A stretch of DNA of 39,479 bases, taken from an uncultured Eubacteriales bacterium (GTDB lineage: Bacteria > Bacillota > Clostridia > Oscillospirales > CAG-272). Positions 7,750-37,492 of the stretch are shown piece by piece. Every line of letters starts with the position of its first letter. Positions within the stretch are counted from its first letter, which is position 1. The notes under the pieces are model-generated. The model made no database searches. It saw only the letters and a list, made by a program, of their open reading frames with translations, and was not told the DNA's origin. The DNA lies in the NCBI GenBank assembly GCA_900321265.1, contig ONVJ01000122.1, forward strand, positions 1-39,479. Direction: 5' to 3'. Both the position numbers and the translations under genes were made by a program.

Positions 7750-8649
7750 ATGAAGAATGAAAAAATGACACCCGCAAAAAAATTCGCCGGGCTCTATCCC
7801 GCGCTGCTGACACCCTTTGACGCCGGCGACAGAGTCAATCCCGAAGCGCTGGCGAAACTCGTCGAATTCAATATCCGCGGCGGCGCCGACGGCTTCTACG
7901 TCGCCGGAAGCACCGCGGAGGTCTTTATGCTGACTCCCGAGGAGCGCCGGCTCGTATACCGCACGGTCGCCGAGGCTGCCGGAGGCAGGGTCAGGCTCAT
8001 CGCGCACATCGGAGCGATCTCGACCGCCGACACCGTCGCCTACGGGGAATTCGCCTCCTCGCTCGGCTACGACGCGATATCTGCGGTTGCGCCCTTCTAC
8101 TACAAATTCGGATTCGGTCAGATAAAGGAGCATTATTTCGCCGTCCAGCGCGCCGTGGGACTTCCCATGCTCGTTTACAACTTCCCCGGGAACTCGGGGG
8201 TGAATCTGACAGCGGATCAGATAGGGGAATTCCTCTCTGACGACGGCTTTATCGGCATGAAGCACACCTCGAGCGACTATTTCGCGCTTCAGACGGTCAA
8301 GTCCCGCTATCCCGGCAAGGTGATATACAACGGCTATGACGAGATGTTCCTCTGCGGACTTGCCATGGGCGCCGACGGCGGAGTGGGCAGCACCTACAAC
8401 TTCATGGTCGACAAATTCGTAAAGATGAGGAAACTCTTCTCGGAGGGCGACACGAAGGGCGCCCTTGCCGTTCAGGACACCGTCAACAGGATCATTGCCT
8501 CCCTTATTAAGATCGGCGTCGCCGAGGGTGAGAAGGAGGTCCTCTGCCGGCTCGGCATCGACATGGGAAGGGCAAGGTCGCCTTACCGCGCTCCCGACGC
8601 GGCGATGAGAAAGAGGATCGATGAGGAGATCCTCCCGCTTCTGGGCTGA
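7750..8649 (+). CDS. nanA: DHDPS/NanA-family class I aldolase, most like N-acetylneuraminate lyase
   Basis: 299-aa ORF. GSTAEVFMLTPEERR resembles the NanA motif GSTGE rather than the DapA motif GTTGE. YNFPG and GMKHTSSDY supply the candidate Schiff-base Lys. The start lies 4 nt after the preceding stop. Confidence 0.65.
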   Translation: MKNEKMTPAKKFAGLYPALLTPFDAGDRVNPEALAKLVEFNIRGGADGFYVAGSTAEVFMLTPEERRLVYRTVAEAAGGRVRLIAHIGAISTADTVAYGEFASSLGYDAISAVAPFYYKFGFGQIKEHYFAVQRAVGLPMLVYNFPGNSGVNLTADQIGEFLSDDGFIGMKHTSSDYFALQTVKSRYPGKVIYNGYDEMFLCGLAMGADGGVGSTYNFMVDKFVKMRKLFSEGDTKGALAVQDTVNRIIASLIKIGVAEGEKEVLCRLGIDMGRARSPYRAPDAAMRKRIDEEILPLLG

Positions 8650-12479: not shown

Positions 12480-14663
12480 TCACGGATCGACAAGGCGTGC
12501 GACCGCGTCGGAGTCTGAACGGCGCCGGGCGGCAAGCCTTTCCGAGGTCTCCCTCATTTTTTCTTCAGCAGGAAGACGGCCGGCGGCGGAGAGAAGGGAA
12601 GACTCTGACAGTTCTCCCGGATCGAGCGCCGGGAAGCCGGCTTCCTCCGCGAAGGCCGCGACCTTGGGGTCGTAGACGACCGCAACCGCGGGGGTCAGCA
12701 CCGAGAGCGAAAAGACGGCCGCGTGGAGCCTTACGCATACCGAGAGCGAAGCTCCCGCCAGCAGAGCCTTCATCTCCTCCGGCGTCATCCTTCCCGCGTA
12801 CTCGCCGCCGCATCCCGCGGCGAGTTTTCGGGAGATCTCCTCATCCTCAGGCGCCATCGCCGCGGTGACCGGCCGGAGGCCGGTCCCGGCGCGGAGCGCC
12901 GCCGATGCGGCGGCGAGAGCGGCAAGGAACCTCCGCCGTTCGCTCCTTCGCGGAGAGGGAAGATCTCTGGCCGCGATGACGAAGTAGTCCCCGTATTTTT
13001 CCCCGAAGTCCTCCCGTGGCTCGGTCACACTGCCAGATACCGCCGCGGCGTCGGCCGAAAGGGCAAATCCGGGCAGCCCCGAACGCCTTCTGGCCTCTCC
13101 CGCAAGCCTTTCGGCGACGGCGAGCGAGCTTCTGTCCCTAAGTCCGGCGTGCGTGACCGACGCAAGAACAGCGGCAGCTGCCTTTTCGGAGTTCTTTTTT
13201 CCGAGCGGGCCGATCCCGCCTCCGGTGATCGCAGTCAGGCAGCCCGACTTTTTTGCGGCTCTCTGCATCGAAGTGTAATACAAAAGAGAGCGGCGGCTGG
13301 TGAGATCCTGCAGCAGCGATCCGCCGCAGAGGATGAAGAGCCTTGTCTTTTTCAGCTCTTCCCGGATCCGTCTGATATCAAGTCTTCCGACCGGCCTGCA
13401 GCCGGTCTTTTCTATGTCGGAAAAGCCCTTTTTCGGGCAGATCACCGATATTTTTCCGGCGGGGACCCCAGCTTCTCTCAGCTCCTCAAGCGAATGGTCG
13501 AGAGTGGCGTCGTCGCCGGCGTTGCGGGCTCCGAAATAACCGCACAGCATGACTCTGCCCTTCTTTTCGGATATGACCTCCCTGTAGACACAGGCGGTCT
13601 CTGCCGCGACGGATCTTATATCGTGACCTTTTTCCGCGAAGGATCTCGCGTATGCCCCGAGCTCTGCGCGAAGGTCTTTGTCGCCGGTCAGAAGAGCCAG
13701 CGATGAGCGCAACAGTTCGCTTCCGGAACCCTCCGGCTTATCTCCGGAAGGGATAAGGTTGGTGCGTTCAAGCTCATCCGAGGTCTCCGGGGAGAGGATC
13801 CCGCCGCATTTTCCGCCGCCCGACAGCGTCACTACCGGCAGACCTGCCGCCGCCGCCTCAAGCGCCGACCGCGACGCCCCGACGAATATGTCGCTCTCTG
13901 CGAGAAGCCCCGAAAGGTCGGCGAGCGCACCTGTAAAACTCACGCCGAAGCCGGGGCCCGCGCCTTCCGCTATTATCTTTACCTCTTTTTCCAGGCGCTT
14001 TCTGTCGCTGCCTTCTCCCGCGACTGTCAGTCGGATCCCGCCGCCTGTCATTGTCACGGAGAGGGAGGCGAGCTCCTTCGCCAGCATGACGACCGCGCCG
14101 GAGTTGTCCGGGTCAAGCCGGCAGGCGGCGCAAACTCTTACTCTGCAGGACGCCGCTCTGTCTGATGCCGGGGGTATCTCGACTCCGTTCCCGATGACGG
14201 TTATCCGCCCGGGATCCAGCCGGTATTTTTCGCAGAGCCATTCTCCGAGGGCGGGGCTTACCGATATTACCCTGTCTCCCCAGTAGGTCAGAGGCCCCTT
14301 CGGAGGCATCGGATCCCAGAATCCGTGCGCCGTCGTGACGACCGGAGGGAAGTCCCGCCGGTCTTTAAGCAGGCGGCAGATGAAGGCGGGAATCCTTCCG
14401 TGTGCGTGAATTATGTCCGGCCTCTCTCTCCCGACCGCGTCGAGAATCCCCCTGAGGGATGCCGCGACCGAGACCGGGTCCTTGCGGTCGAGGGGAAGGA
14501 GCATCTGCCTCGCGCCGGCAGCCTCAAGCCGCGGGACGAGGAGGCCGCCCGACGACGCGACGGTCACCGAATGACCCGCGCGGACGAGTTCGGCCGACAG
14601 TGTCAGGACATGGCTTTCGGCTCCGCCGATCCCCATTCTCGCGGTACAGATCAGTATCCGCAT
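12480..14663 (-). CDS. Fusion protein: N-terminal GT4 (group 1) glycosyltransferase plus C-terminal CsaB-type polysaccharide pyruvyl transferase
   Basis: 727-aa ORF. The N-terminus is MRILICTARMGIGGAESHV..., with ALEAAAAGLPVV in the GT-B C-lobe. From about residue 368 the sequence VMLCGYFGARNAGDDA ... LCGGSLLQDLTSRRSLLYY ... GGGIGPL matches CsaB-family signatures. Confidence 0.8.
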   Translation of the reverse strand: MRILICTARMGIGGAESHVLTLSAELVRAGHSVTVASSGGLLVPRLEAAGARQMLLPLDRKDPVSVAASLRGILDAVGRERPDIIHAHGRIPAFICRLLKDRRDFPPVVTTAHGFWDPMPPKGPLTYWGDRVISVSPALGEWLCEKYRLDPGRITVIGNGVEIPPASDRAASCRVRVCAACRLDPDNSGAVVMLAKELASLSVTMTGGGIRLTVAGEGSDRKRLEKEVKIIAEGAGPGFGVSFTGALADLSGLLAESDIFVGASRSALEAAAAGLPVVTLSGGGKCGGILSPETSDELERTNLIPSGDKPEGSGSELLRSSLALLTGDKDLRAELGAYARSFAEKGHDIRSVAAETACVYREVISEKKGRVMLCGYFGARNAGDDATLDHSLEELREAGVPAGKISVICPKKGFSDIEKTGCRPVGRLDIRRIREELKKTRLFILCGGSLLQDLTSRRSLLYYTSMQRAAKKSGCLTAITGGGIGPLGKKNSEKAAAAVLASVTHAGLRDRSSLAVAERLAGEARRRSGLPGFALSADAAAVSGSVTEPREDFGEKYGDYFVIAARDLPSPRRSERRRFLAALAAASAALRAGTGLRPVTAAMAPEDEEISRKLAAGCGGEYAGRMTPEEMKALLAGASLSVCVRLHAAVFSLSVLTPAVAVVYDPKVAAFAEEAGFPALDPGELSESSLLSAAGRLPAEEKMRETSERLAARRRSDSDAVARLVDP

Positions 14664-21853: not shown

Positions 21854-24800
21854 ATGGTAACGAAATTCCAGCGGTTAACTGCACTGCTGCTGGCGCTGCT
21901 GACGGCCTTGGGCTGCTTCGGCATATCCGTATCGGCTGCCGATGCGGATACCGAAGAGATCAAGATCTCCTATTCCAGCAACGCGATAGCAACTGCCAAG
22001 GAACTGCAGGAGGCGCTTTCCTACGAAGCTTATACGGCAAAGTATTCGAACGAAGCGCTCTATCCCAACGCGACCGAAGCCAAAGTCATCGACGGCACAG
22101 CCTATCTCGCGGACGGAACTACCGCGAAGGTAGAAAAGACCGAACATGACGGCAAATCGGCTCTCGAAACAGGCTCGACGGGTACCGTGGCCTACAAATT
22201 CACGCTGCCCGAGACGGCCAAATACGTGATCAGGGTCAACTACTGGCCGACCGAATCCGAGTCGTCCTCGACCTCGATCCAGAGGATCCTCAGGATCAAC
22301 GGCAAGGTCCCCTTCTCGGAGGCCTACACGATCGGCTTCACTAAGGTGTGGAAGACGGTCTACGCCCCCGAGGACGAAAATACGCTGAAGGACGGTACGG
22401 TCAGGCACTTCAGGCGCGACATCGACAACAACGAGATCCGCACCACCGCGGTGCAGCGTCCGGAATGGTGTTCCCTGACCGTAAAGGACATCGACGGATT
22501 CTACAAGGATCCTTTCGTTTTCGTCTTTGAAAAGGGCGAAAACATCATCACCCTCGAGGCGCTTGCCGAGGCGATCGCCATCGGCAGCATCGAGCTTCTG
22601 CCCTACGAAAAGGTCATGTCGTTTGACGATTACAGGGCGAAGTTCGCGTCCAAGCCCAAGGGCACCGATATCGTGAGGTTCGAGGCGGAAGAGCCCCTTG
22701 CCACCTCCACCAACACGATATACCCCGTTGAGGACAGATCCTCGGCGGTGAACAGCCCTACAGACGAGAGCCGCGTGGTCCTCAACACCCTCGGAGGTGA
22801 AAAGTGGCAGGTCTCGCAGCAGTGGGTATCCTACTCCTTTGAGGTCGCCACGTCAGGCATGTATCAGATCGTTCCCAGGTTCAGGCAGCATGTGAACGAC
22901 GGTATGTACTCCTCCCGTGCGCTTTACATCTACAGCGATTCCTCGCTGGCCCCCGGTGCAGACGGGTACTACAACGGAGTTCCCTTCGACGAGGCCCGCG
23001 AGCTCCGCTTCAACTACGATCCCGACTGGAACGCCTTCCCGCTCCGGTTCGGCAAGGTCTCGGTCGACGAAAAGGGCAACGAGATCCTTGATTACGTAGA
23101 TTGCGAATTCTACTTTGAGGCCGGCGTTACCTACACCATCAAGTTCGAGGTAACCCTCGGAACGATGGGCGAGATAGTCAGAAAGGTCCAGGCCTCGCTT
23201 GACGCCATCAACGGCGCCTATCTGAACATCATGCGTCTTACCGGCGCGTCTCCCGACGAATCCCGCGACTACTCCTTCTCGACGGTCATGCCGGATACCG
23301 TTATCCAGATCATCATCCAGTCGGGAAAGATCAGAAAGATCGCCGATGAGCTCAACTCGCTTGCCGGAGGAAAATCCTCCAACATCGCGACGCTTGAGAA
23401 GGTCGCCTGGCTGCTCGACAAGATGGGCCGCAACCCCGAGGACGAGTTCGCCAGGAACATGAAGCAGCTGAAATCCTACATAGGAAACCTCGGCACCTGG
23501 CTCTCCAACGCCAAGACCCAGCCGCTCCAGTTCGACTATATCACGATCCAGGGAGCCGACGAAAAGCTTCCGCGCGGCAAGGCTAACTTCTTCCAGTCTC
23601 TGAAGCACGAGTTCCTCAGCTTCTGGCACTCCTTCTTCAGAAACTACAACCGCATGGGTTCGATGGTCAAGGAGAGCGAGCTGAAGGAAGCTCTTCAGGT
23701 ATGGAACGCCTACGGTCGTGACCAGGCGCAGGTCATCAGAAACCTGATCAACAACGACTTCACCCCCAACACCGGTTATACCGTCGACCTCAAGCTGGTC
23801 GCCGGAGGCACGCTGCTTCCCTCGATCCTGGCCGGTCAGGGCCCCGACGCCTATATCGGACTCGGTGAGGACAACGTTATCAACTACGCCATCCGCGGAG
23901 CGCTCATCGAGATCGAGGATCTTGCCGGGTTCGCGGACCTGCTCTACTACAAGACCGATGAAAAACTGAATACCGTCTATGACGGGAACGGTGATCCGAT
24001 AAAGAACCCCGACGCTCAGTTCAATGAGGCCGCGATGCTCGTTCTCGGTATCCCGGATGCAGAAAACAAGATGCATTACTACGGTCTGCCCGAGACTCAG
24101 GCCTTCCCGATGATGTTCATACGCTCGGATATCCTTTACGAGCTCGGCATCACCACGCTCGACACCTGGGACGACCTGATCGAGGCGGCTACGATACTCA
24201 GCCAGAACTCGATGACGATCGGTCTTTCGAACGACTACAAGATCTTCCTCTATCAGATGGGAGGAACCCTCTTCGCCGACGGAGGAATGAGGATCAACCT
24301 CGATTCGAACGTCGCTCTCGATTCCTTCGAGACGATGTGCAACATGTTCACGACATACAAGCTCCCCTACAAGTACGACTTCGTCAACCGCTTCAGGACA
24401 GGCGAGATGCCGATCGGTATCGCCGGCTACAACGGCACCTACAACCACCTGATCGTCTTCGCGACCGAACTTCGCGGCGCATGGGAGTTCGTTCCCGTCC
24501 CGGGATACAGGATCACCGATCCCAAGACCGGCAAGGAGTTCATCAACAACGTCTCGGTCTCGACTGTCTCGGCGATCGTCATGATCAACGGCTGCGAAGA
24601 CAAGGACGGGACATGGGAATTCATGAAGTGGCATGTCGGCAAGGACTGCCAGGTCAACTATTCCAACGAGATGATCGCGATACTCGGCGACTCAGCCAAG
24701 CACGGCACAGCCAACATCACGGCTCTCGAAACGATGCCCTGGACGAACAAGGAAAGGGAAGCGCTGATCTCACAGTTCCAGAATCTCGCTTCGATCCCCA

Positions 24801-25267
24801 ACTATCCCGGAGCATATATCATCGGCCGTTACACCAAGTTCTCCTTCCTCGGTGCCTATAACGACGGCGACGAGCCTGTTTCCAAGCTGCTCAGCTACAT
24901 CAATATTATAAATAAGGAAATCACGCGCAAACGCGCCGAGTTCGGACTTGAGACTCTTGAAGTAGGAGAGACGCTGGCGAGCAAGCGCAAGGATCAGGCG
25001 CTTGCCGAGATAGACGCCCTCGACGCGTCTGTCGCCGCCTCCTGCTCGGCAGAGATCGCGGAGATCAAACGAGTGCTGGGTGAGATCGAGGAGAACGCCA
25101 CCTTCAAGGCATACTGCGACGATGTCTACATCGACGCTCTGAGAAAGGCCGGCAACGACCTCCTCGCCAAGGCTCCCGGCAACGAGAAGATCGAGAGCAT
25201 CTGCGAAAAGATCTCGGTCTGCGCAGACAGCCTCAAGATTTATCAGGCGTCATATCCGCTTGAGTGA
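21854..25267 (+). CDS. Secreted 1137-aa fusion: two CBM-like beta-sandwich modules, a helical linker, a type-1 extracellular solute-binding domain and a C-terminal helical tail
   Basis: The start is set at MVTKFQRL (ATG 21854), after a GGGAGGAA RBS. A signal peptide is present (...GCFGISVSA). Two modules have CBM6/35-like patterns (GTVAYKFTLPETAKYVIRVNYW; WVSYSFEVATSGMYQIVPRFRQ). The SBP-like core includes LPSILAGQGPDAYIG. Confidence 0.8.
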   Translation: MVTKFQRLTALLLALLTALGCFGISVSAADADTEEIKISYSSNAIATAKELQEALSYEAYTAKYSNEALYPNATEAKVIDGTAYLADGTTAKVEKTEHDGKSALETGSTGTVAYKFTLPETAKYVIRVNYWPTESESSSTSIQRILRINGKVPFSEAYTIGFTKVWKTVYAPEDENTLKDGTVRHFRRDIDNNEIRTTAVQRPEWCSLTVKDIDGFYKDPFVFVFEKGENIITLEALAEAIAIGSIELLPYEKVMSFDDYRAKFASKPKGTDIVRFEAEEPLATSTNTIYPVEDRSSAVNSPTDESRVVLNTLGGEKWQVSQQWVSYSFEVATSGMYQIVPRFRQHVNDGMYSSRALYIYSDSSLAPGADGYYNGVPFDEARELRFNYDPDWNAFPLRFGKVSVDEKGNEILDYVDCEFYFEAGVTYTIKFEVTLGTMGEIVRKVQASLDAINGAYLNIMRLTGASPDESRDYSFSTVMPDTVIQIIIQSGKIRKIADELNSLAGGKSSNIATLEKVAWLLDKMGRNPEDEFARNMKQLKSYIGNLGTWLSNAKTQPLQFDYITIQGADEKLPRGKANFFQSLKHEFLSFWHSFFRNYNRMGSMVKESELKEALQVWNAYGRDQAQVIRNLINNDFTPNTGYTVDLKLVAGGTLLPSILAGQGPDAYIGLGEDNVINYAIRGALIEIEDLAGFADLLYYKTDEKLNTVYDGNGDPIKNPDAQFNEAAMLVLGIPDAENKMHYYGLPETQAFPMMFIRSDILYELGITTLDTWDDLIEAATILSQNSMTIGLSNDYKIFLYQMGGTLFADGGMRINLDSNVALDSFETMCNMFTTYKLPYKYDFVNRFRTGEMPIGIAGYNGTYNHLIVFATELRGAWEFVPVPGYRITDPKTGKEFINNVSVSTVSAIVMINGCEDKDGTWEFMKWHVGKDCQVNYSNEMIAILGDSAKHGTANITALETMPWTNKEREALISQFQNLASIPNYPGAYIIGRYTKFSFLGAYNDGDEPVSKLLSYINIINKEITRKRAEFGLETLEVGETLASKRKDQALAEIDALDASVAASCSAEIAEIKRVLGEIEENATFKAYCDDVYIDALRKAGNDLLAKAPGNEKIESICEKISVCADSLKIYQASYPLE

Positions 25268-25299: not shown

Positions 25300-26241
25300 A
25301 TGTCTAAAACAGCAACAAAGGCTGTGTCCCAAAAGGATATTTCAAGGTTTCGGTATACGCTGAAAGAGATGAACCGCAACAAGGTCGGATACGTCATGAT
25401 CGCACCCTTCATGCTCGTGTTCACCCTGTTCACCGTCGCGCCGGTCGTGGTCTCGATGGTCATAAGCTTTACGGACTTCAACCTGCTGCAGACTCCGAAC
25501 TTTGTTTTCCTGGACAACTACATCCGCCTTTTCCTTGACGACGATATCTTCCTGATCGCGATCAAGAACACATTCGTGTTCGCAGCGATAGTCGGTCCCG
25601 CCGGCTATCTGATGTCCTTTATGGTGGCCTGGTTCATCAACGAGCTCGAGCCTAAGATCAGAGCCGTCGTGACGCTCATCTTCTATGCTCCCTCGATCTC
25701 CGGCCACGTCTATCTCATCTGGGGCACACTCTTCTCCGGCGACTCCTACGGATGGGTCAACGGATTCCTCCTCAACTACAATCTTATTGACGAGGAGATT
25801 CAGTTCTTCGAAGACGCCGACTACGTCATGCCTCTGTGTATCGTTGTCGCACTCTGGATGTCGCTCGGTACCTCCTTCCTGTCCTTCATCGCCGGTCTGC
25901 AGGGCGTCGACCGTTCGCTCTACGAGGCGGGCGCCGTCGACGGCGTAAGAAACCGCTGGCAGGAACTCTGGTACATAACCCTTCCGTCGATGAGACCGCA
26001 GCTGATGTTCGGCGCTATTATGTCGATCACCTCCTCCTTCGGTTTCGGCGGAGTCGTCGACGCCCTCTGCGGAAACCCGTCGGTCGACTACTGCGCATGG
26101 ACGATCATGCATCACCTTAACGACTACGGCGGAGCGAGGTTCGAAGTCGGATATTCATCCGCGATAGCCGTCGTACTGTTTGCCATAATGATGGGCGCGA
26201 ACGCGCTGGTCAAGAAGCTGATTTCAAAGGTAGGTTCGTAG
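25300..26241 (+). CDS. ABC sugar transporter permease, MalF/UgpA-type
   Basis: 313-aa ORF with six predicted hydrophobic segments. The EAA loop is LYEAGAVDGVRNRWQELWYITLPSMRP. An AAGGAGAG RBS lies upstream. Confidence 0.9.
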   Translation: MSKTATKAVSQKDISRFRYTLKEMNRNKVGYVMIAPFMLVFTLFTVAPVVVSMVISFTDFNLLQTPNFVFLDNYIRLFLDDDIFLIAIKNTFVFAAIVGPAGYLMSFMVAWFINELEPKIRAVVTLIFYAPSISGHVYLIWGTLFSGDSYGWVNGFLLNYNLIDEEIQFFEDADYVMPLCIVVALWMSLGTSFLSFIAGLQGVDRSLYEAGAVDGVRNRWQELWYITLPSMRPQLMFGAIMSITSSFGFGGVVDALCGNPSVDYCAWTIMHHLNDYGGARFEVGYSSAIAVVLFAIMMGANALVKKLISKVGS

Positions 26242-26243
26242 AA

Positions 26244-27116
26244 ATGGCAAGATTAAGAACCAGAAAACACAAGGTAGTACTGAACCGCTCGGTCGGCGGT
26301 GACGCGGGCATAACCTTCCTGCTCGTGCTTCTCGGAGCCTTCATGTTCCTGCCGATGCTCTACGTCATCATGCAGTCGCTGAAGCCTCTTGACGAACTCT
26401 GGATGTTCCCGCCCAGATTCTACGTCGTAAACCCGACCTTCAGGAACTTCAAGGACCTCTTCGTCCTCATGAACACCTCCTGGGTCCCCTTCTCCCGCTA
26501 CATCTTCAATACGGTGTTCATCACCGTTCTTGGGACTGTAGGCAACCTCTTCTTCGGATCTCTTGCCGCCTACGCCTTCTCGAAGGTAATGTTCCCGGGG
26601 CGCAAGTGGATGTTCAAGGTGGTCCGTTCCTCGCTCATGTTCCACAAGACGGTCACCGCCGTTACGAACTTCATCATCATGAGCGCGCTGCATATGGTCG
26701 ACACCTACTGGGCGCTGATCATTCCGGCATGGGGCCACACCCTCGGCCTCTACCTGATGAAGCAGTTCATGGAATCGAACGTCACCGACGCCGTCCTCGA
26801 GTCGGCGAGACTTGACGGAGCGTCCGAGTTCAAGACCTTCTGGGTGATTGCGATGCCGATGGTCAAGCCCGCATGGCTTACCCTCATCATCTACTCCTTC
26901 CAGGATCTCTGGAACGCCGGTTCCTCGATCTACATCCACTCCGAGCAGCTCAAGTCCTTCAACTACGCGATCGGACAGATCACCGCCGGAGGTATCAAGC
27001 GTGCCGGAGCTTCGGCAGCTTCGCAGGTCATAATGATGGCGGTGCCTATACTGGTATTCGTCATAACTCAGTCAAACATCATCGAGACGATGGGATCGTC
27101 GGGAATGAAGGATTAA
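26244..27116 (+). CDS. ABC sugar transporter permease, MalG/UgpE-type
   Basis: 290-aa ORF with the EAA loop LESARLDGASEFKTFWVIAMPMVKP. It starts 2 nt after the preceding stop. Confidence 0.9.
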   Translation: MARLRTRKHKVVLNRSVGGDAGITFLLVLLGAFMFLPMLYVIMQSLKPLDELWMFPPRFYVVNPTFRNFKDLFVLMNTSWVPFSRYIFNTVFITVLGTVGNLFFGSLAAYAFSKVMFPGRKWMFKVVRSSLMFHKTVTAVTNFIIMSALHMVDTYWALIIPAWGHTLGLYLMKQFMESNVTDAVLESARLDGASEFKTFWVIAMPMVKPAWLTLIIYSFQDLWNAGSSIYIHSEQLKSFNYAIGQITAGGIKRAGASAASQVIMMAVPILVFVITQSNIIETMGSSGMKD

Positions 27117-29292: not shown

Positions 29293-32200
29293 ATGAAGAA
29301 AATAATTGCAATGACCCTGTCTGTCATCATCCTCGTCGCGATGCTCATCGTCGACGTCGGGGCCTACGCGGTCGATCTGGTCTTCGAGATCGATTCCAAG
29401 ACAAAGAAGCCGACAGACACCGTCGATTACAAATCCACCCTTGAGCAGTACCTCACTCTCGAGTTTGCCACTGCCGAGGATAAGCTGGCTTCGATGGAGA
29501 TGCTGCTCGAAAAAGACGGGTATCAGCTCTGGGCCGACAGGCTGACCGGCGAGGTCGCCACCAAGAACCTCTCTTCGGGTCAGATCCTCTTCTCGAACCC
29601 CTATGACGTCGGAGCCAAATATCCCTCCAAGCAGGGACCGTCGGATTCCACCAAGAAGAAGCTGATGTCCCAGCTCATGGTGAGATACGTCGACAACGAT
29701 ACCGAGAAGGAGATGTACTCCTTTGAAGAGGCCGCGATGAACGGCCAGATCAAGATCAAGAACATCAAGAACGGTATCCGCGTCGAATACTCCATCGGCC
29801 GTGAGGAGACCAGAATGCTGGTCCCGAAGGTCATAGAGAAGACCCACTTCGAGACCGAGATCCTCGAGCCCTTCGCGAACGAGATCAACGAGATCTCCCG
29901 CGATTCCGGCCTTATCGAACTCAACTGGGTAGACTACTTCCCGGTATCGAAGAGAAAAGAAGCGGTCCCGGATTCGGGCGGAAACTCGCTCTGGTTCAAC
30001 TTCATGCAGCTCCTCGCCTACTATCAGTACAAGGCGACCGAAGCCTGCGCGACAGAACCCGAGAAGAAATCTCTGGTAGCCGCCTATCCCATCTGTAAGA
30101 AAATGAACGTCTACGTCTTCTCTACAGACGCTACGACGACAGAGACGATGAGGATAGAGAACTACATCAAGACCTACGCTCCCTCATACACCTACGAAAT
30201 GCTCGAAGCCGACCATGCTCTCACCGAGTATGAAGGCTCCGACAAGAACCCCGCGCTCTTCAAGGTCGCGCTGGAGTATACCCTTGACGAATGGGGCATG
30301 TCCTTCCGCTGCCCGGTCAACGGTCTGAGATTCGACGAATCGCTCTATCAGCTCGTCTACATCAGCCCGCTTCAGTATATGGGCGCCGGAGCCAACTACC
30401 TGCTCGGAGACAAGGCCGAGAAGTTCACAGGCTATAACTTCTTCCCGGACGGATCCGGCACACTCTTCCGTCACGAGGACCTCGCGACGAACAACACGAC
30501 CACGATCAACGCAAAGGTCTACGGAGCCGACTTCGCCTACAACAACATAAGCGGGACCCACTCCGAGACCGTCCGCTACCCGGTATTCGGGATCGTTTCC
30601 AACTACCATGACATCCGTCAGTCGGTAGAGAAGCAGCTGGTCGCGGAAGAGATCAGGGATCCGAACACCGGCGAAGTGCTCTCCCCCGCGGAATACGAGG
30701 AAGTCGAAGTCGACTATACTTATAATGAAGACCGCGGATTCGTGGCCATCATCGAGGAGGGCGACGCCCTCGCCGAGCTGTCCACATACCACGCGGGCTC
30801 GCTCAGCAAGTACAACTCGATAAGCATGCTCTTCTATCCCAGACCCAAAGACTCATACAACCTCGCCAACGCGATCTCGGTCGGCGCAAACGCCACCTGG
30901 ACGGTCGTCTGCTCGAGAAAGTATGTCGGCAACTACAAGGTCAGGTACATTATGCTCACCGACCGGACCATTGCCGAGGAAAAGGGACTGGAGAACACAT
31001 ACGAGCCTACCTGGATGGGCATGGCGACTGCGTACAGAGATTACCTGACCTACAAGGGCGATCTCCAGAGGCTTGAGTCCTCCGACGTTTCCGCCGACAT
31101 TCCCGCCTATATCGAGACCTTCGGCGCGATCGAGACTGTTGAAAAGATCATGTCGATCCCGGTAAACACGATGGCAGCGCTGAGCTCCTTCGAAAATATC
31201 AAGACGATGTATGACGAGCTCTCCGCCGAGGGAGTCGGCAACATCAAGTTCAAGCTCACCGGATACGCCAACGGCGGTATGTACGCCTCGATCCCCTACA
31301 GACTCAAGTGGGAGAAGGTCGTCGGCGGCGCCGAAGGATACAAAGATCTTGTCAGCTATGCGAAGCAGAAGGGCTTCCAGGTATTCCCCGACTTCAACTT
31401 CGCATATGTCAGATCGAGCACCAACAAGGCGTTCGACGGACTTACATTCAAGAAGCATATAGTCAAGTCGATCAACAACACCTATATGTCAAAGAGGTAC
31501 TACAGCGCCACGAGACAGACGATGATCGGACGCTTCGACCTCTGCGTATCCCCCGCATACTACTCTCACTTCTATGAGAAGTTCAATCAGAACCTGCTGA
31601 AATACTACGGGGACGGAGTGGACAAGACGATCTCCATCGCATCCCTCGGAACCGCCCTCAACTCCGACTTCGACGAGGATGAGCCTTACAACCGCGAAGA
31701 CTCGAAGAAGCAGACGATCGAGGCGGTAAAGGAGATCGGAGACAAGTATGACTACGTAATGACCGAAGGCGCCAACGCCTACGTCTGGAAATACGTAGAC
31801 TACATACTCAATGTCCCGCTCGATTCCAGCCGCTACACAAGGTCGAGCGCATCGGTGCCCTTCATCGGTGTCGTTCTTCACGGCAGCAAGCAGTTCGCCG
31901 GCACGCCGCTCAACATGGACGGCAACATAGGCTACAGCCTGCTGAAAGCGATCGAGAACGGCGCGGGAGTCTACTTCATCCTGGCTTACCAGAACTTCGC
32001 CAAGCTGAAGGAAGACTTCGTGCTCAGCGAGTACTACTCGGTCAGATACGATATCCTTAAGAACGACGTCGTCAAATACTACACGCTGATCAACGACCTG
32101 ACGAAGGATCTGCAGCTTGAGCTCATCACCTCGCACGAGTTCCTCACCGGCGAACGCGTGCCCGATCCCGATGAGGTCATAGCCGACGCCGCAGAGGCTC

Positions 32201-35200
32201 AGAGGCTTCTTGAAGAAGAGGCCAAGGCGGCCGAAGAGGCAGCCGAGAAAGCCAGAGTCCAGAGCCTGCTCAACGGACGTGTCAACGCCGCCGACAGCGC
32301 CGCCAACTGCCTGCTGCAGGTCAACGGCTTCTACAATCAGGCGGTCGCCAATGACGAGGGCAGCTGCTCGGTCGCCATAAACGGAAACGTGACGGTGACG
32401 ATCGGTATGAAGACCCTTGTCAATCAGGTCATCGAGACTTCCGCTGCAAGAGCCGCAGCTCAGACGCTCAATGACGAGAAATACGACGATGACAAGCTGA
32501 AAGCCGCGATCCTTGAGGCCTGGACCGAGATCAACGATCCCTTCAGCGCCCATATGAAGAGCGGCAGCAACGGCGCGTATGCCGCGATCCTCAGCACCTA
32601 TGAGAAGGCAAACGCCTCCTATACAAACAACGTCAACACCGCGGCAACCAGAAAAGAAGCCTACGACACTGCCGTTGAGAACGCGGTCAGAGCGGGTATC
32701 GACAAGATCCCCGAACTCTACGCCGCTTACAAGGAGAACGCGACAGAAGAAAATCTTCAGGCTCTGCTGCAGTATGCCGGGACTCTCGCGGACGCGGAAA
32801 AGTATGTCGAGCTGATCGCAAAGATCGCCGAGACCACGGCTGAGATCTCCGGACTCGCTACCGCGTATAAAGAAGATGCCGCTTACAAGGCACTCGAGGA
32901 GGCAAAGGCAGCAAGGGAACAGAATCTTAAGGATGCCGAAGCCGCCGACAAGGCCAGCGTAAACGAGCTGAAAGCCATTCAGAGCAATCCCGCCGGACAT
33001 ACCGCCGAGGAGATCGCCAGAGCCCAGGCATACACCGACGCTGTTGCCGCGCTTGCCGACGCTCAGGCGGAGGTCAAGGCAAGGATCAGTTATCTGAAGC
33101 TTGTCGACACCAGTGCCAAAAAGGCTCTCTCGACAGTGCCCGCAGGCTCCGACGAGCTGACCAAGCTTGAGCAGCTCATCGCGGATGCCGAAAAGGAGCT
33201 CGAGGAGCTCAACGATTCCGACAATACCACGAATCCCTACAATGCCGCCGTTATCTCCGCCCAGGCAGCTCTTGACGCCTTCACGCCCGCGACCGGCGCC
33301 GCAAGGACCGAGTCCGAAAAGGCGGACAAAGCCCTGAAGGATTACGAGGACAACTACAAGGCGACATACACCGAATCCGCCGCATATAAGGCCGCCGAGG
33401 CGAAGAAGCAGGGCTATGAGACCGAACTCGCTGCTCTGGAAGAGAAGTTCTCGAATATCGCTCCGGTACGCGCCCTGCTCGAAAAGTTCGTTTCCGCCAT
33501 GGAGGCGAGAAATGAAGCAGCCGCGAAGAGGACGACTCTTGAAAACAGCTATGCGTCCAACGCCGAATACATCAAGCTTCAGGACGCTCAGGACAAGGCC
33601 AATTACAACTTCACGGTAGTATCCGAAAAGCTTCTCGCCGCTATCGAAGAGGACGAGGAATACATCGCTCTCAAGAAGAAGGTGGAGGAGACAAAGGCAG
33701 AGCTTGAGAAATACACGCTCGGATATCTCGACGAGCTTGCCTACGCTGAGATCCAGGAAAAGCTTGAGGATGCCAAGGCTGAAGTAGAAGCTCTTGAAAC
33801 GGCATACCTCGAGGACGAAGAGTACAAGAAACTCTACGCGGCCTTCGAGACCGCAGAGAAGGAGCTCGACGCGGTAAGAACCGAGGCAGACTCGATCGCT
33901 TCCGCCGAGAAGCTGACGGTCACCGACGCGTTTATCGACAAGATCTCCAAAGCGGTTTCCGACTACGCCGCAGCAAAGTCCGCCCTCGATAAATACAATG
34001 AGGCGTTTGAGACAGAGCTGAAGGACAGCAAAGAATATAAGGAAGCCCTGTCCGAACTCGAGACGATCGAAAAAGAGGAAAAGGCGTTTATCGACGAGTT
34101 TATCGCTGAGCTCGACCAGGCCGCGATCGACTCAAGATCCGAAGAGAAGCCGGAAGAAACACTCGGAGGCAAATACGCGATCGCCCGCGACGCCTACGAC
34201 ACCGCGAAAAAATACCTCAATTATTTTGACGGAACGACTTCTGTGCCGAACACCGTCAAGGACGCTGTCGTTTATTCCGAGAAGGTAAAGACCATGGCCG
34301 AGTACACCAAGGCGGAATCCGAAAAGAAAGCCGCCCAGGACGCGATGGCGCTCTTCACCTCCGACTACGGAACAAAGCTCAAAGCCACGAAGGAAGAGAT
34401 CATCTCTACCATCACCGATCCTCAGCTGAAGGAGTACAACGCTCAGTATCAGGAGGCCAACGCCGCCTACTCCGCCGCCACGACCGAGATAACCGATACC
34501 TCGAAGGCACTCAGAGAATATGACAAGACCAGCGGCCCCGCGGTATACAACGCCGCCAACAGCTACTATACGGCTCTCGGCAATGTCAACACCGCGAGGA
34601 TCAACGCGGAGAAGGAACTGAAACACTCCGAACTGAGCGGATTCAAGGCTGCTTACGACGAGGACTCCGCCGCCTACGCGAAGATCTCGGGCAGACTTGA
34701 AGAGGTCAGGACCGAATCTGAGACTGCCGCGGAGGATTACAAGGTCGCTTCCGCCGATCTGACAAAGGCCACAAAGGCCTCCAACGACGCCATCAAGGCG
34801 GTCAGAGACCAGATCAACAGGATCACCGGCACGATAGTTCCCAGACTGAACTACTACGTCAAGGAGATGCTGAAGACGGTCGACGACTCCAATCTTGCCG
34901 TCGAAGTCCTTGGAAGTTCTCCCGACTATTCCGATCAGCTCAAGGAAGACGTGAAGGCCGCCAACAAGATCGCGGTCGACACCGAGAAGGAAGTCAGAGA
35001 GCTTTCCGACAAGGCGATCGCCTCGGCGAAGCACGCGCTTGAGACCGCATCCTCGATCATCGAGATAACCACCGAGATCAGCGATCCCTACAATCCTTCA
35101 GAGGGTTCGGGATCCGAAGAGACCGGAGACGACGAGGAAGAAGAGAACACCGTTACCAAGTACACCGACAACAGCGGAAACATCGTCGCTGTCGGATACT

Positions 35201-35364
35201 CAAACGGCGTCATGTTCCTCATCAACTACAACTATTTCGACGTTGTGACTGTTTACAACGAAGTCAGCTACACACTTCCCGCTTACGGCGGCTACAGGAT
35301 CAACCCTGACGGCTCCGTCAACTCTTTCTCAACATTCTTTGTGTTAGGAGGGATTGAAGAATGA
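29293..35364 (+). CDS. 2023-aa secreted or anchored giant: a ~930-aa globular alpha/beta domain (possibly DUF5696/GH-like), a ~970-aa A/E/K/Y-rich helical region, an acidic linker and a ~70-aa beta-rich C-terminal domain
   Basis: This is one uninterrupted ORF. A GAAGGAGA RBS lies upstream. The N-terminal hydrophobic segment is IIAMTLSVIILVAMLIVDVGAYA. The stop overlaps the next ATG (ATGA, 35361-35364). Domain limits were read from the translation: the helical region spans about nt 32160-35070. Confidence 0.85.
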   Translation: MKKIIAMTLSVIILVAMLIVDVGAYAVDLVFEIDSKTKKPTDTVDYKSTLEQYLTLEFATAEDKLASMEMLLEKDGYQLWADRLTGEVATKNLSSGQILFSNPYDVGAKYPSKQGPSDSTKKKLMSQLMVRYVDNDTEKEMYSFEEAAMNGQIKIKNIKNGIRVEYSIGREETRMLVPKVIEKTHFETEILEPFANEINEISRDSGLIELNWVDYFPVSKRKEAVPDSGGNSLWFNFMQLLAYYQYKATEACATEPEKKSLVAAYPICKKMNVYVFSTDATTTETMRIENYIKTYAPSYTYEMLEADHALTEYEGSDKNPALFKVALEYTLDEWGMSFRCPVNGLRFDESLYQLVYISPLQYMGAGANYLLGDKAEKFTGYNFFPDGSGTLFRHEDLATNNTTTINAKVYGADFAYNNISGTHSETVRYPVFGIVSNYHDIRQSVEKQLVAEEIRDPNTGEVLSPAEYEEVEVDYTYNEDRGFVAIIEEGDALAELSTYHAGSLSKYNSISMLFYPRPKDSYNLANAISVGANATWTVVCSRKYVGNYKVRYIMLTDRTIAEEKGLENTYEPTWMGMATAYRDYLTYKGDLQRLESSDVSADIPAYIETFGAIETVEKIMSIPVNTMAALSSFENIKTMYDELSAEGVGNIKFKLTGYANGGMYASIPYRLKWEKVVGGAEGYKDLVSYAKQKGFQVFPDFNFAYVRSSTNKAFDGLTFKKHIVKSINNTYMSKRYYSATRQTMIGRFDLCVSPAYYSHFYEKFNQNLLKYYGDGVDKTISIASLGTALNSDFDEDEPYNREDSKKQTIEAVKEIGDKYDYVMTEGANAYVWKYVDYILNVPLDSSRYTRSSASVPFIGVVLHGSKQFAGTPLNMDGNIGYSLLKAIENGAGVYFILAYQNFAKLKEDFVLSEYYSVRYDILKNDVVKYYTLINDLTKDLQLELITSHEFLTGERVPDPDEVIADAAEAQRLLEEEAKAAEEAAEKARVQSLLNGRVNAADSAANCLLQVNGFYNQAVANDEGSCSVAINGNVTVTIGMKTLVNQVIETSAARAAAQTLNDEKYDDDKLKAAILEAWTEINDPFSAHMKSGSNGAYAAILSTYEKANASYTNNVNTAATRKEAYDTAVENAVRAGIDKIPELYAAYKENATEENLQALLQYAGTLADAEKYVELIAKIAETTAEISGLATAYKEDAAYKALEEAKAAREQNLKDAEAADKASVNELKAIQSNPAGHTAEEIARAQAYTDAVAALADAQAEVKARISYLKLVDTSAKKALSTVPAGSDELTKLEQLIADAEKELEELNDSDNTTNPYNAAVISAQAALDAFTPATGAARTESEKADKALKDYEDNYKATYTESAAYKAAEAKKQGYETELAALEEKFSNIAPVRALLEKFVSAMEARNEAAAKRTTLENSYASNAEYIKLQDAQDKANYNFTVVSEKLLAAIEEDEEYIALKKKVEETKAELEKYTLGYLDELAYAEIQEKLEDAKAEVEALETAYLEDEEYKKLYAAFETAEKELDAVRTEADSIASAEKLTVTDAFIDKISKAVSDYAAAKSALDKYNEAFETELKDSKEYKEALSELETIEKEEKAFIDEFIAELDQAAIDSRSEEKPEETLGGKYAIARDAYDTAKKYLNYFDGTTSVPNTVKDAVVYSEKVKTMAEYTKAESEKKAAQDAMALFTSDYGTKLKATKEEIISTITDPQLKEYNAQYQEANAAYSAATTEITDTSKALREYDKTSGPAVYNAANSYYTALGNVNTARINAEKELKHSELSGFKAAYDEDSAAYAKISGRLEEVRTESETAAEDYKVASADLTKATKASNDAIKAVRDQINRITGTIVPRLNYYVKEMLKTVDDSNLAVEVLGSSPDYSDQLKEDVKAANKIAVDTEKEVRELSDKAIASAKHALETASSIIEITTEISDPYNPSEGSGSEETGDDEEEENTVTKYTDNSGNIVAVGYSNGVMFLINYNYFDVVTVYNEVSYTLPAYGGYRINPDGSVNSFSTFFVLGGIEE

Positions 35365-36347
35365 CTACCGACCTTCAGCTAAACAAGACGGTCAGTGCCC
35401 CCAAGAAGGCAGTAAAAAAGAAAAAGCGCGCTTCTTCCCTCGACAGGAGAAAGGCGCGCGCCGGATGGTGGTTCGTAATGCCCTTCATAATCGGTTTCCT
35501 GACCGTTTATCTTCCGGTAATATTCGATTCCATCAGATACTCGTTCAGCCATATCAAGATCACGTCGGGCGAAGGGTTCATAATTGAAAATGTCGGATGG
35601 GCGAACTACAATGAAGCTCTGTTCGTCAACCCGAACTTCGTACGGACTCTTCTGACCGGTCTTGGAGAACTCGCCTTCGATATCCCCGCCATCATTCTGT
35701 TCTCGCTCTTCATGGCGGTCCTTCTGAACCAGAAGATGGTAGGCCGCGCGCTCTTCCGCGCCATATTCTTCATCCCCGTTATCCTTGCGACAGGTATCAT
35801 GGAGTCGATCGACTCTCAGAACCTCGTCGGTACGATGATGGATGATACCGACGGAATCGCGGACGGCACCGGACAGTCAACGGCGACAGACATTGTTTCG
35901 GCGATCGATATCGAACGATTGTTCGCAAACATGAGAGTCGGAACCGAACTCGTCGAATATGTTGTCGGCGTCGTTAACAAGATCTACAACATAGTAAACC
36001 GCTCGGGCGTTCAGATGCTCATATTCCTTGCCGGACTTCAGTCGATATCGCCCGCCATCTACGAGTCCTGCCAGATCGACGGCGCGACCGCCTGGGAGAC
36101 CTTCTGGAAGATCACCTTCCCTTTTTTTTTTAATGATACGGCGACCACCGAGATCTACACCGTCATCGACTCGTTCACGACAGATTCCAACAGGGTCATG
36201 AAGTTCATTGCGGGTATTTACGTTCAGTCGAACGGACAGGAGGTCAGCTCGGCGATGTCATGGATGTACTTCCTGATAGTCATCGTCATCATAGCGCTGG
36301 TTTCCGCGATCCTCTCGGCCTTCGTATTCTACCAGAGAAGAGACTGA
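35361..36347 (+). CDS. ABC sugar transporter permease, MalF-type (divergent)
   Basis: 328-aa ORF with the EAA loop IYESCQIDGATAWETFWKITFP. It has a basic N-terminal tail. A T10 run lies at 36122-36131 and is in frame. Confidence 0.85.
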   Translation: MTTDLQLNKTVSAPKKAVKKKKRASSLDRRKARAGWWFVMPFIIGFLTVYLPVIFDSIRYSFSHIKITSGEGFIIENVGWANYNEALFVNPNFVRTLLTGLGELAFDIPAIILFSLFMAVLLNQKMVGRALFRAIFFIPVILATGIMESIDSQNLVGTMMDDTDGIADGTGQSTATDIVSAIDIERLFANMRVGTELVEYVVGVVNKIYNIVNRSGVQMLIFLAGLQSISPAIYESCQIDGATAWETFWKITFPFFFNDTATTEIYTVIDSFTTDSNRVMKFIAGIYVQSNGQEVSSAMSWMYFLIVIVIIALVSAILSAFVFYQRRD

Positions 36348-36364
36348 GAAAGGAGGAAGTTAAG

Positions 36365-37492
36365 ATGAATGCACAGGATACCGCTCCGAAAATCATGAAG
36401 GAGTCAAAGAACAAGATCAGAGTCGAGTTCGAACGCACTCCGCTCAAGGAAAGACTCAAGGCGAAATTCATCAATATGGCTTTCGTCACCGACGTCGTTT
36501 GGTACATATTCAGACTCATACTCCTCCTCGGGATCGCGTATATCGTGCTGTTTCCTTTCTACAGCAAGATCGCCGGTTCCTTCATGGGCAGAGACGATTT
36601 CGTCGACGTGACCGTCATGCTCATTCCCAAGAACTTCTCGCTTGACATGTACAAGTTCATAGTTCTTGAGAACCATTATTTCGAGGCCTTCGGCAACACT
36701 CTGCTGCTTGCCGGATCGACTGCACTTATCCAGGTGTTTATCTGCTGCCTTATCGGATACGGACTCGCGAAGTTCAAATTCAAGGGCAACAAGTACGTCT
36801 TCCTGGCCGTCATCCTGACGATGGTCGTGCCTCACCAGACCCTGCAGCTTTCTCTCTTCATGAAGTTCAGATTCTTCGACATATTCGGCATCATCAAGTT
36901 CCTTTCGGGGCACGCGAGAGTCGGAGAGGTCGGATGGATCAACGACATTCTCAAATCGATCAACATTTTCGGCTCAGAGAGCAGCAACAAGCTGATCAAG
37001 GGCATCATAAGCGACGGAGCGCTCAACCTGAACAACTCCTTCATGCCCCTGATCGTGCTCTCGCTCACCGGTCTCGCCTTCAAGAACGGCCTGTATATCT
37101 TTATGCTCCGCCAGTTCTTCCGCGGCGTTCCCGACGAACTTGAGGAGTCGGCGTATATCGACGGATCGGGCGTCTTCAGGACATTCCTGCAGATCATAAT
37201 TCCTCTGTCGGTGCCGATGATGATAACCGTCTTCCTGTTCGCCTTCTCATGGCAGTGGACTGACGACTTCTATACGAGGCTATTCTTTACCACGCATAAG
37301 ACGGTGCTGATGCCGGATATCGTCGCGATCCCGCAAACTCTCGAGACCAGCTACGCCGGACAGAACCTCTACTACTCGGCTATCAGAAACACCTGCGGCA
37401 TCATGATCATCTTCCCGCTGGTCATCATCTACGCCTTCCTCCAGAACTTCCTGGTACAGGGCATAGAGAGATCCGGACTTACCGCCGATTGA
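36365..37492 (+). CDS. ABC sugar transporter permease, MalG-type with an ~80-aa insertion
   Basis: The start is set at MNAQDTAPK (ATG 36365), after an AGGAGGAAG RBS. The EAA loop is LEESAYIDGSGVFRTFLQIIIPLSVP. At 375 aa it is longer than the usual ~280-300 aa. Confidence 0.85.
   Translation: MNAQDTAPKIMKESKNKIRVEFERTPLKERLKAKFINMAFVTDVVWYIFRLILLLGIAYIVLFPFYSKIAGSFMGRDDFVDVTVMLIPKNFSLDMYKFIVLENHYFEAFGNTLLLAGSTALIQVFICCLIGYGLAKFKFKGNKYVFLAVILTMVVPHQTLQLSLFMKFRFFDIFGIIKFLSGHARVGEVGWINDILKSINIFGSESSNKLIKGIISDGALNLNNSFMPLIVLSLTGLAFKNGLYIFMLRQFFRGVPDELEESAYIDGSGVFRTFLQIIIPLSVPMMITVFLFAFSWQWTDDFYTRLFFTTHKTVLMPDIVAIPQTLETSYAGQNLYYSAIRNTCGIMIIFPLVIIYAFLQNFLVQGIERSGLTAD

Follow-up and report, generated by a model that had tools for sequence, protein, structure and literature searches.

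In the 39,479-nucleotide window analyzed here (contig ONVJ01000122.1 of assembly GCA_900321265.1, from an uncultured Eubacteriales bacterium of the GTDB lineage Oscillospirales, CAG-272), the fifth of seven co-directional genes encodes a giant DUF5696 protein with a long helical insertion. The stop codon of this gene shares 4 nt with the start of the downstream permease gene. Its 2,023-amino-acid (aa) product has five parts, namely, a signal peptide, a globular DUF5696 part, a helical region of about 960 aa, an acidic linker of 44 aa, and about 60 aa of beta strands. The features of the gene are as follows.

29293..35364, + strand: whole gene, DUF5696 protein with helical insertion; 2,023 aa, uninterrupted open reading frame (ORF)
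29293..29370, + strand: putative signal peptide, aa 1-26 (MKK, a 17-residue hydrophobic core, and AYA followed by V at the predicted cleavage site); from the sequence pattern
29371..32112, + strand: globular DUF5696 part, aa 27-940, a beta-rich N-terminal region and then a (beta/alpha)8-type barrel; from Pfam, a homolog model, and Foldseek
32113..32166, + strand: first strand of the C-terminal immunoglobulin (Ig)-like domain (LELITSHEFLTGER) and entry into the insertion, aa 941-958; a strand in both models
32167..35049, + strand: helical insertion, aa 959-1919; from an AlphaFold2 (AF2) model and hydrophobic periodicity
32362..32400, + strand: short beta-hairpin of two strands at about aa 1024-1036, close to the conserved insertion base; from the secondary structure of the model
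33901..33924, + strand: candidate hairpin tip, loop aa 1537-1544 (AEKLTVTD); from helix-length bookkeeping only
35050..35181, + strand: acidic linker, aa 1920-1963, with 13 D/E, 1 K/R, and no predicted structure
35182..35361, + strand: remaining strands of the C-terminal Ig-like domain, aa 1964-2023; six strands with a predicted local distance difference test score (pLDDT) of about 80

A first-pass annotation of this gene, made by reading the sequence, had proposed a large globular domain, a helical region, and a small beta-rich C-terminal domain. That three-part layout is real, as evidenced by a Pfam match to DUF5696, the AF2 helices of aa 959-1919, and six C-terminal strands, and the acidic linker that it described is likewise present (aa 1920-1963; net charge, -12). 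It had also taken the first 25 or so hydrophobic residues for a signal peptide or anchor; we read aa 1-26 as a Sec signal peptide from the sequence pattern, and the N termini of homologs have the same n-h-c layout with AxA-type sites. Cleavage is likely and would leave no membrane anchor on the protein, whose sole hydrophobic segment is aa 1-34. Moreover, motif, Pfam, and hydrophobicity checks revealed no LPXTG-like motif, SLH or cell-wall-binding Pfam domain, or C-terminal membrane helix, in agreement with the features that had been reported as missing.

It is vanishingly improbable that this architecture is an artefact, whether an assembly chimera or a disordered, low-complexity linker taken for structure, and no finding speaks for one. 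Independent assemblies from NCBI, JGI, and ENA contribute at least nine members to a cluster at 90% identity, all nine of them 2,023 aa long, and the full architecture is retained in homologs at 80% to 45% identity. GC content is even along the gene, with no shift. These three observations rule out the chimera that the first-pass annotation had raised as a danger to its own reading, and the high confidence of the model and the hydrophobic periodicity speak against a disordered linker.

The glycosidase-like head and the insertion site

The globular part is a clear member of the DUF5696 family. The Pfam search that had been suggested as a check matched DUF5696 (PF18952) at 386.1 bits against a cut-off of 25.6 (E = 4e-115), aligning aa 478-952 with profile positions 131-577 of 612, whereas NCBIfam returned no match to the protein. 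The DUF5696 profile ends in the region of a strand with the motif HEFLxGER and covers neither the insertion nor the C-terminal strands.

The fold of the head was taken from an AF2 model of a short homolog, P0076 (1,168 aa, with an insert of about 220 aa), built from a 73-sequence alignment with a mean pLDDT of 79 and a predicted template modeling (TM) score, or pTM, of 0.69. In a Foldseek search of the PDB, this model was closest to DagB (5opq; E = 1.3e-21; TM-score on target, 0.64) and NagBb (5wzp; E = 1.7e-17; TM-score on target, 0.70), followed by members of glycoside hydrolase (GH) family GH101 (about E = 1e-9; 2zxq and 5a55), GH31, GH36, and GH13. The glycosidase-like fold proposed at first reading is thus upheld, with GH129 and GH129-like enzymes nearest (E = 1e-21 to 1e-17). 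DagB (ZGAL_3152) is a GH129-like 3,6-anhydro-D-galactosidase with a contiguous C-terminal Ig-like domain of 73 aa (PMC5698469). The P0076 model shares with 5opq, as laid out in the same paper, an N-terminal beta-sandwich, a (beta/alpha)8 barrel, and a C-terminal Ig-like domain. On these models, it is well supported that the giant protein is secreted and has the predicted three-domain layout of GH129/GH101-type glycosidases. NagBb, DagB, and GH101 have the same domain order as its head; however, the N-terminal region of the giant protein is larger, and its C-terminal domain is split by the helical insertion.

The relationship between this head and GH129/GH101 is one of fold only, at about 10-12% identity. 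No Pfam GH family matched the protein at E <= 0.1, and membership of GH129 or GH101 is accordingly not claimed at the level of sequence. PDB sequence searches with the protein and with the family profile returned only spurious helical matches (huntingtin polyglutamine, F-BAR, and SMC), and a barrel-only DUF5696 profile reached NagBb at just E = 0.71. The barrel-only profile also matched interferon-gamma chains (E = 8.5e-5) over some 80-90 residues around LNSDFDEDEPYNRED, which was judged a chance match of helical segments. Across 254 family members, polar residues that follow predicted barrel strands are invariant at R801, N828, H863, N874, and E888. Acidic residues in such positions are frequent, comprising D/E700 (252/254; 99%), D792 (236/254; 93%), D794 (234/254; 92%), and D844 (210/254; 83%).

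Homologs reveal where the helical region sits in this fold. An exhaustive search with aa 1-955 returned 3,766 representative clusters at E <= 1e-3, and the best 150 of these include many complete proteins of 929-2,545 aa. The last 60 or so residues are conserved and always form the extreme C terminus, as found in 118 of 120 close homologs and in 256 of 261 proteins. In the insert-free homologs P0250 (SHDFIANKVVKMTYSNGITFILNYN; VVSHDFIANKVVKMTYSNGITFILNYNNNTVNVEDYEIGALDFVVIK), P0258, and P0222, the HEFLxGER strand (H-[ED]-F-[LI]) is directly continuous with the C-terminal strands. Other homologs carry additions at this same site: about 20 residues in P0142 and P0202, a helical hairpin of about 45 residues in P0242, and a single helix of about 40 residues with an extended, Ser/Asp-rich return in P0181 and P0188.

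Insert length, measured with anchor hidden Markov models in 256 family members, ranges at this one site from about 0 to 1,460 aa, with modes at 60-100, 200-300, 300-600, and 800-1,000 aa. The insert of the window protein, which is 998 aa with its linker, falls in the top tenth of this series. The longest inserts belong to P0122 (2,545 aa in total; insert of about 1,460 aa) and P0132 (2,300 aa; about 1,225 aa). Both of these proteins also have additional insertions within the globular domain, e.g., a barrel segment of about 30 aa preceding NINFKLTGYANGG.

It is well supported that the helical region interrupts, as an insertion, a beta-hairpin of the small C-terminal Ig-like domain, immediately after the first strand of that domain. 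Because the flanking strands are neighbors in one sandwich, both in insert-free relatives and in the fold neighbors, the inserted chain must exit and return to the same point. An insertion into an enzyme was one of two geometries offered in the first-pass annotation, which had also called for a comparison of homolog lengths, and the direct joining of strands in P0250, P0258, and P0222 and the length series both favor it. A Pfam scan of an artificial fusion of aa 1-955 with aa 1936-2023 was uninformative, gaining only 10 bits, and the C-terminal 88 aa alone had no match.

The helical insertion as a probable folded-back stalk

An AF2 model of aa 861-2023, built with 41 homologs in the alignment, has a mean pLDDT of 85 and a pTM of 0.57. 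It places 818 of the 961 residues from aa 959 to 1919 in helices of at least 10 residues, mostly at pLDDT 85-97; there are about 30 helices of 10-90 residues, and the breaks between them are mostly 1-9 residues long. Beyond the helices, the linker is modeled without regular structure and at low confidence (pLDDT below 50 at aa 1936-1954), and aa 1964-2013 are modeled as six strands. An acid-rich stretch is conserved at the linker position in homologs.

The composition of the helical region is dominated by Ala (19%), Glu (12%), and Lys (9%), and its net charge is -69. A/E/K/D/T/L together amount to 62% of it versus 43% of the globular part, and so the earlier description of the region as almost purely these residues was overstated. 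No Pfam family matches the insertion. Within the helices, hydrophobic residues recur with a period of 3.5 (z = 14.2 versus shuffles), a stronger signal than at 3.6-3.67, and a stripe of this period points to packed, left-handed, coiled-coil-like helices rather than a solvated single helix. The periodicity emerged only when the analysis was confined to the helices defined by the model; over the entire protein, a sliding-window Fourier scan gave no diagnostic signal. The helical, coiled-coil character suggested at first reading is borne out by these data, while its punctuation by Tyr is only partly so. Tyr recurs in register with the hydrophobic stripe (z = 3.7 at period 3.5), and conservation across the 41 homologs extends to several Tyr positions. 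However, Tyr is rarer in the helical region (5.5%) than in the globular part (8.0%), and its enrichment at helix breaks falls short of significance (19 of 31 breaks versus 14.9 +/- 2.5 expected; 7.7% of shuffles reach 19).

Foldseek comparison of the helical model with the PDB yielded matches below E = 1e-3 only to MukB (2.7e-5 and 3.1e-5) and JetC (5e-4), followed by Smc4 (1.4e-3) and then by Rad50, PrgA, and colicin Ia (0.15-0.8). In a viral library, the named matches were mostly SMC/SbcC-type ATPases and tape-measure proteins, none of them below E = 1e-3. The arms of SMC proteins, MukB, Rad50, and JetC are long intramolecular antiparallel coiled coils whose two ends meet in one head, and we liken the stalk to them. 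A return of both ends to one head is shown by the insert-free homologs; antiparallel packing is suggested by heptad periodicity and by the MukB match (E = 2.7e-5), but the TM-score of that match is 0.06. Unlike SMC proteins, the giant protein has no ABC-type ATPase head and no hinge domain was seen; its head is glycosidase-like, the protein is extracellular, and DUF5696 is the only significant Pfam family on it.

The lengths of the modeled helices can be added up along such a path. Outward, they sum to 64 - 50 + 47 + 80 - 42 + 35 + 205 = about 339 residues, and on the return to 206 + 90 + 39 = 335 residues, with the turn near aa 1537-1544. Also, the two directions balance in P0076, where a 78-residue helix is followed by helices of 43 + 42. 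By this bookkeeping, the stalk would be roughly 50 nm long and would consist of bundles of three or more helices close to the head and of two helices farther out; for a simple hairpin of two helices, the length would be about 70 nm. The 44-aa linker could stretch to at most about 15 nm and therefore covers only a small part of the return path. We infer that the insertion folds back on itself as an SMC arm does and forms an antiparallel stalk, either a coiled coil or a bundle, probably some 50-70 nm in length, and we consider this structural part of our explanation very probable.

The other geometry offered in the first-pass annotation was a one-way rod of about 100 nm. In a fuller version, an extended rod or single alpha-helix of about 100-140 nm would carry the C-terminal beta segment as a separate distal domain, and the high A/E/K content and long predicted helices are in keeping with it. 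Nevertheless, in insert-free homologs and in the fold neighbors, no break separates the C-terminal strands from the HEFLxGER strand, the 3.5-residue stripe is that of packed helices, and the Foldseek matches are antiparallel arms. The one-way rod is thus very unlikely, and the evidence favors a hairpin that folds back.

The only two Cys residues of the 961-residue helical region, aa 1006 and 1027 (about nt 32308-32373), lie 21 residues apart around the beta-hairpin at the base. P0013 (1,861 aa) likewise has two Cys in this region. A disulfide staple at the base of the stalk is possible.

The recurring units listed in the first-pass annotation are real and appear to have a deep origin. Neither tandem repeats nor long direct repeats were found in the DNA of the helical part, and self-BLAST of the region detected no internal repeats. 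Profile-profile comparison of 70-aa blocks, on the other hand, gave scores of up to 51.9 (E = 1.5e-10) versus a maximum of 20.1 in reversed-sequence controls, which agrees with the earlier view that the units recur loosely and do not stem from recent tandem duplication. Offsets between the repeats of about 85, 217, and 313 residues point to an ancient unit that was roughly 85-105 aa long. The repeats share a common core, Y-x-[ES]-[DSN]-x-x-Y-K-x-[LA] (e.g., TAYKEDAAYKAL, TAYLEDEEYKKL, NSYASNAEYIKL, and TYTESAAYKAA), and five occurrences of this core fall on one-residue helix breaks, with a D/S/N that resembles an N-cap. We propose that the insertion grew by ancient duplication of this unit of about 85-105 aa and that what has been maintained in it since then is a helical heptad pattern and not a sequence.

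The seven-gene cassette and the possible role of the stalk

The other six genes of the cassette flank the giant-protein gene on both sides.

21854..25267, + strand: gene 1, 1,137-aa lipoprotein with the lipobox LTALGC and a C-terminal half related to solute-binding proteins; from sequence and from the homolog at locus L002, which matches PF01547 (SBP_bac_1)
25300..27116, + strand: genes 2 and 3, a divergent permease pair, UgpA/MalF-like and UgpE/MalG-like, of 313 and 290 aa
27129..29273, + strand: gene 4, a membrane protein of 714 aa that combines NHL and TPR repeats with a signal peptide and a multi-pass Yip1 domain
35361..37492, + strand: genes 6 and 7, a second permease pair, of 328 aa and about 375 aa

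The first six genes lie 2 to 32 nt apart or share the 4-nt overlap, and the seventh begins about 17 nt past the sixth. The mechanical ORF call for gene 7 starts at 36260 and overlaps gene 6 by 88 nt; its likely start is the ATG at 36365, behind a GGAGG ribosome-binding site (GAAAGGAGG), giving 375 aa compared with 376 aa in the L002 homolog. The four permeases are of the BPD_transp_1 type, and all score far below the curated equivalog cut-offs. The cassette contains no gene for an ATP-binding cassette (ABC) ATPase, either here or in L002, and thus it falls short of a full type I ABC importer operon, in which a binding protein, two permeases, and an ATPase occur together. The copy of gene 1 in the window has no Pfam or NCBIfam match, and its N-terminal 560 or so aa belong to no family. 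That N-terminal part is beta-rich, with two similar-looking segments (YKFTLPETAKYVIRVNYWP and YSFEVATSGMYQIVPRFRQ) that are possibly carbohydrate-binding modules, and a helical tail of about 100 aa follows the binding-protein core.

At least 570 encoded relatives turned up in a scan that took one genome per species; the best 80 of them are mostly from gut and rumen metagenome-assembled genomes labeled Clostridia, Eubacteriales, Oscillospiraceae, or Lachnospiraceae. Gene content was compared at 82 loci, and the order and strand of the seven genes are identical in 82/82 as far as the contigs reach. The NHL/TPR/Yip1 gene is present in 81/82, and gene 1 is syntenic in 65/82, with the remainder all cut by contig ends. 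Insert length varies from 12 to 996 aa across 80 genome loci, all with this same cassette. The first-pass annotation had called such a protein unusual for an ABC importer operon; the arrangement is instead the rule within this cassette, which itself carries no ATPase. The cassette is flanked by housekeeping genes (a PlsY-like G3P_acyltransf gene upstream and RlmB downstream) and not by a typical polysaccharide-utilization locus.

We propose that the stalk would be a stiff, strongly acidic spacer, the length of which is set lineage by lineage. As such, it would fix the distance of the glycosidase-like head from the four permease subunits, the NHL/TPR/Yip1 protein, and the giant lipoprotein binding protein. 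The head may then act at a fixed depth within the Gram-positive envelope or outside it, and the adjacent importer would take up the fragments that it releases. The combination of an inserted fold-back stalk with a lineage-tuned spacer is the best overall explanation, to which we assign a probability of about 0.55. For the spacer function by itself, with the importer taking up the products, we would offer slightly less than even odds.

The closest likeness in design is to the membrane fusion proteins, such as AcrA, MacA, HlyD, and EmrA. In these transporter accessory proteins, a beta-sandwich (lipoyl) domain is interrupted by a coiled-coil hairpin of about 5-13 nm, which varies in length from family to family with the gap to be bridged, and such hairpins oligomerize into a channel. 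The giant protein differs in fold (it has no HlyD-type Pfam match), in its stalk of about 50-70 nm, in its enzyme-like head, and in its Gram-positive lineage.

In the clade of proteins of about 2,000 aa, identity per 100-residue window is 12-76% in the insert versus 46-97% in the head; nonetheless, even as insert identity drops to about 20-30%, the insert is always 958-1,005 aa long. Length follows phylogeny, with a correlation of r = 0.87 between a protein and its nearest neighbor, and it ranges from 417 to 1,094 aa among proteins whose heads average at least 65% identity. The base is the only well-conserved part of the insert, and a shared tip motif is absent. We consider it well supported that the shape of the insert is constrained rather than its sequence.

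The same data can be read in favor of an exposed, fast-evolving surface projection. In this alternative, the head would sit on the membrane complex and the acidic rod would point outward with its tip free and with no role as a ruler, serving as a bristle of steric or electrostatic effect or as a surface structure that varies under diversifying pressure from phage, host immunity, or neighboring cells. The much faster evolution of the insert than of the head, its range of lengths among closely related heads, its net charge, and the absence of a conserved binding motif all suit such a projection. However, length stays within about 5% in deep subclades despite sequence divergence, which points to selection on length rather than free drift, and we regard a projection of this kind as unlikely.

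A further alternative is a docking or regulatory arm, in which the hairpin tip would be gripped by a membrane complex, either by permease loops or by the NHL/TPR ectodomain of the Yip1 protein. The arm would thereby keep the secreted enzyme attached and might also activate it, in the way that FtsEX acts on EnvC, PcsB, and CwlO through their coiled coils. At all 82 loci, ABC permease genes bracket the gene, and its neighbor encodes a membrane protein whose extracellular NHL/TPR domains are large; no other anchor is visible on the giant protein. Precedents exist as well: the ABC system YknWXYZ includes a subunit of the Yip1 family (PMC4887032), and EnvC, PcsB, and CwlO, which are secreted partners of the ABC-like complex FtsEX, each join a coiled-coil hairpin to a domain related to hydrolases (PMC7668044, PMC6355983), a design that the giant protein also resembles. 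In those proteins, though, the coiled coil is N-terminal, about 10 nm long, and not an insertion; the partner is FtsX, of a type VII ABC system; and the substrates are peptidoglycan. The cassette permeases are type I importer subunits (BPD_transp_1) and not FtsX, and the head is not a LytM, CHAP, or NlpC/P60 domain. Moreover, the same cassette occurs with inserts of only 12-86 aa, and so the arm cannot be the essential contact, while the candidate tip region is poorly conserved. To our knowledge, an arm of 50-70 nm also far exceeds any known force-transmitting coiled coil. A docking arm is therefore improbable.

Several observations weigh against the inserted, fold-back spacer that we favor. 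Some cassettes carry almost no insert, from which it can be argued that the head rather than the tip makes the essential contact. The lengths of partner proteins do not track insert length (Spearman correlation without phylogenetic correction: binding protein, 0.35; Yip1 protein, -0.11). The putative spacer function does not account for how the protein would be retained at the cell with its signal peptide cleaved. As for the structure, the proposed antiparallel pairing, docking of the C-terminal strands, and stalk length rest on topology, secondary structure, and Foldseek matches with very low TM-scores (0.05-0.07) and root mean square deviations of 70-118 Å. Long, flexible rods would explain these values, which bespeak a likeness of topology to SMC-type arms and not homology. 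Also, indels between clades are asymmetric about any single tip, meaning either that the stalk is not a simple two-helix hairpin or that the alignment is unreliable. Finally, Pfam, PDB sequence, and barrel-only profile searches all lack a sequence-level match to any GH family. Catalysis by the modeled head is plausible but unproven because acidic residues are common without being universal: Asn replaces the candidate acids D792 and D794 in about 6% of members, and about 14% have neither Asp nor Glu at the D844 position.

Wider significance and upstream genes

Literature searches for DUF5696, for PF18952, and for the combination of a Yip1 protein, a binding protein, and a glycosidase found nothing relevant. 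The fold class and the structural device are each known; their combination, scale, and gene context appear not to have been described previously. A bolder interpretation, which we find rather doubtful, is that the cassette may be an unrecognized, envelope-spanning, glycan-harvesting machine of gut Clostridia. In such a machine, an SMC-arm-like ruler on a glycosidase would position polymer cleavage relative to a double-permease importer organized by the Yip1/NHL/TPR subunit, and the ruler, from 0 to more than 100 nm, would in each lineage be matched to how thick the wall, S-layer, or capsule is.

DUF5696 proteins and the cassette are found in at least 570 species-level genomes, mostly of gut and rumen Clostridia, and the GH129/GH101-like fold gives a starting point in the search for DUF5696 substrates. 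With natural lengths that run from 0 to about 1,460 residues at a single loop of one domain, the insertion is an unusually clean system for studying the origin of long coiled-coil stalks. It also bears on the tolerance of beta-sandwiches for stalks and on protein rulers that position enzymes in thick envelopes, and the insertion may be a useful scaffold for protein engineering.

Upstream of the cassette, between window positions 269 and 8649, lie genes of the host-glycan type.

269-1591: GH4 enzyme
3269-5077: secreted-looking protein with three Big_3 domains
5167-6222: BNR/sialidase-like protein
6279-7745: SBP_bac_8 binding protein
7750-8649: DHDPS/NanA-family lyase

By their predicted products, these genes suggest sialic acid foraging in the same organism. 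Because the window also has sialidase-like and NanA-like genes, mucin-type or other alpha-linked glycans are obvious candidates for the substrate of the head. At 12480-14663 on the - strand, a single 727-aa ORF encodes a GT4 glycosyltransferase fused to a polysaccharide pyruvyl transferase domain. Enzymes of this kind modify cell-wall polymers, and this one bears on the envelope of the organism.

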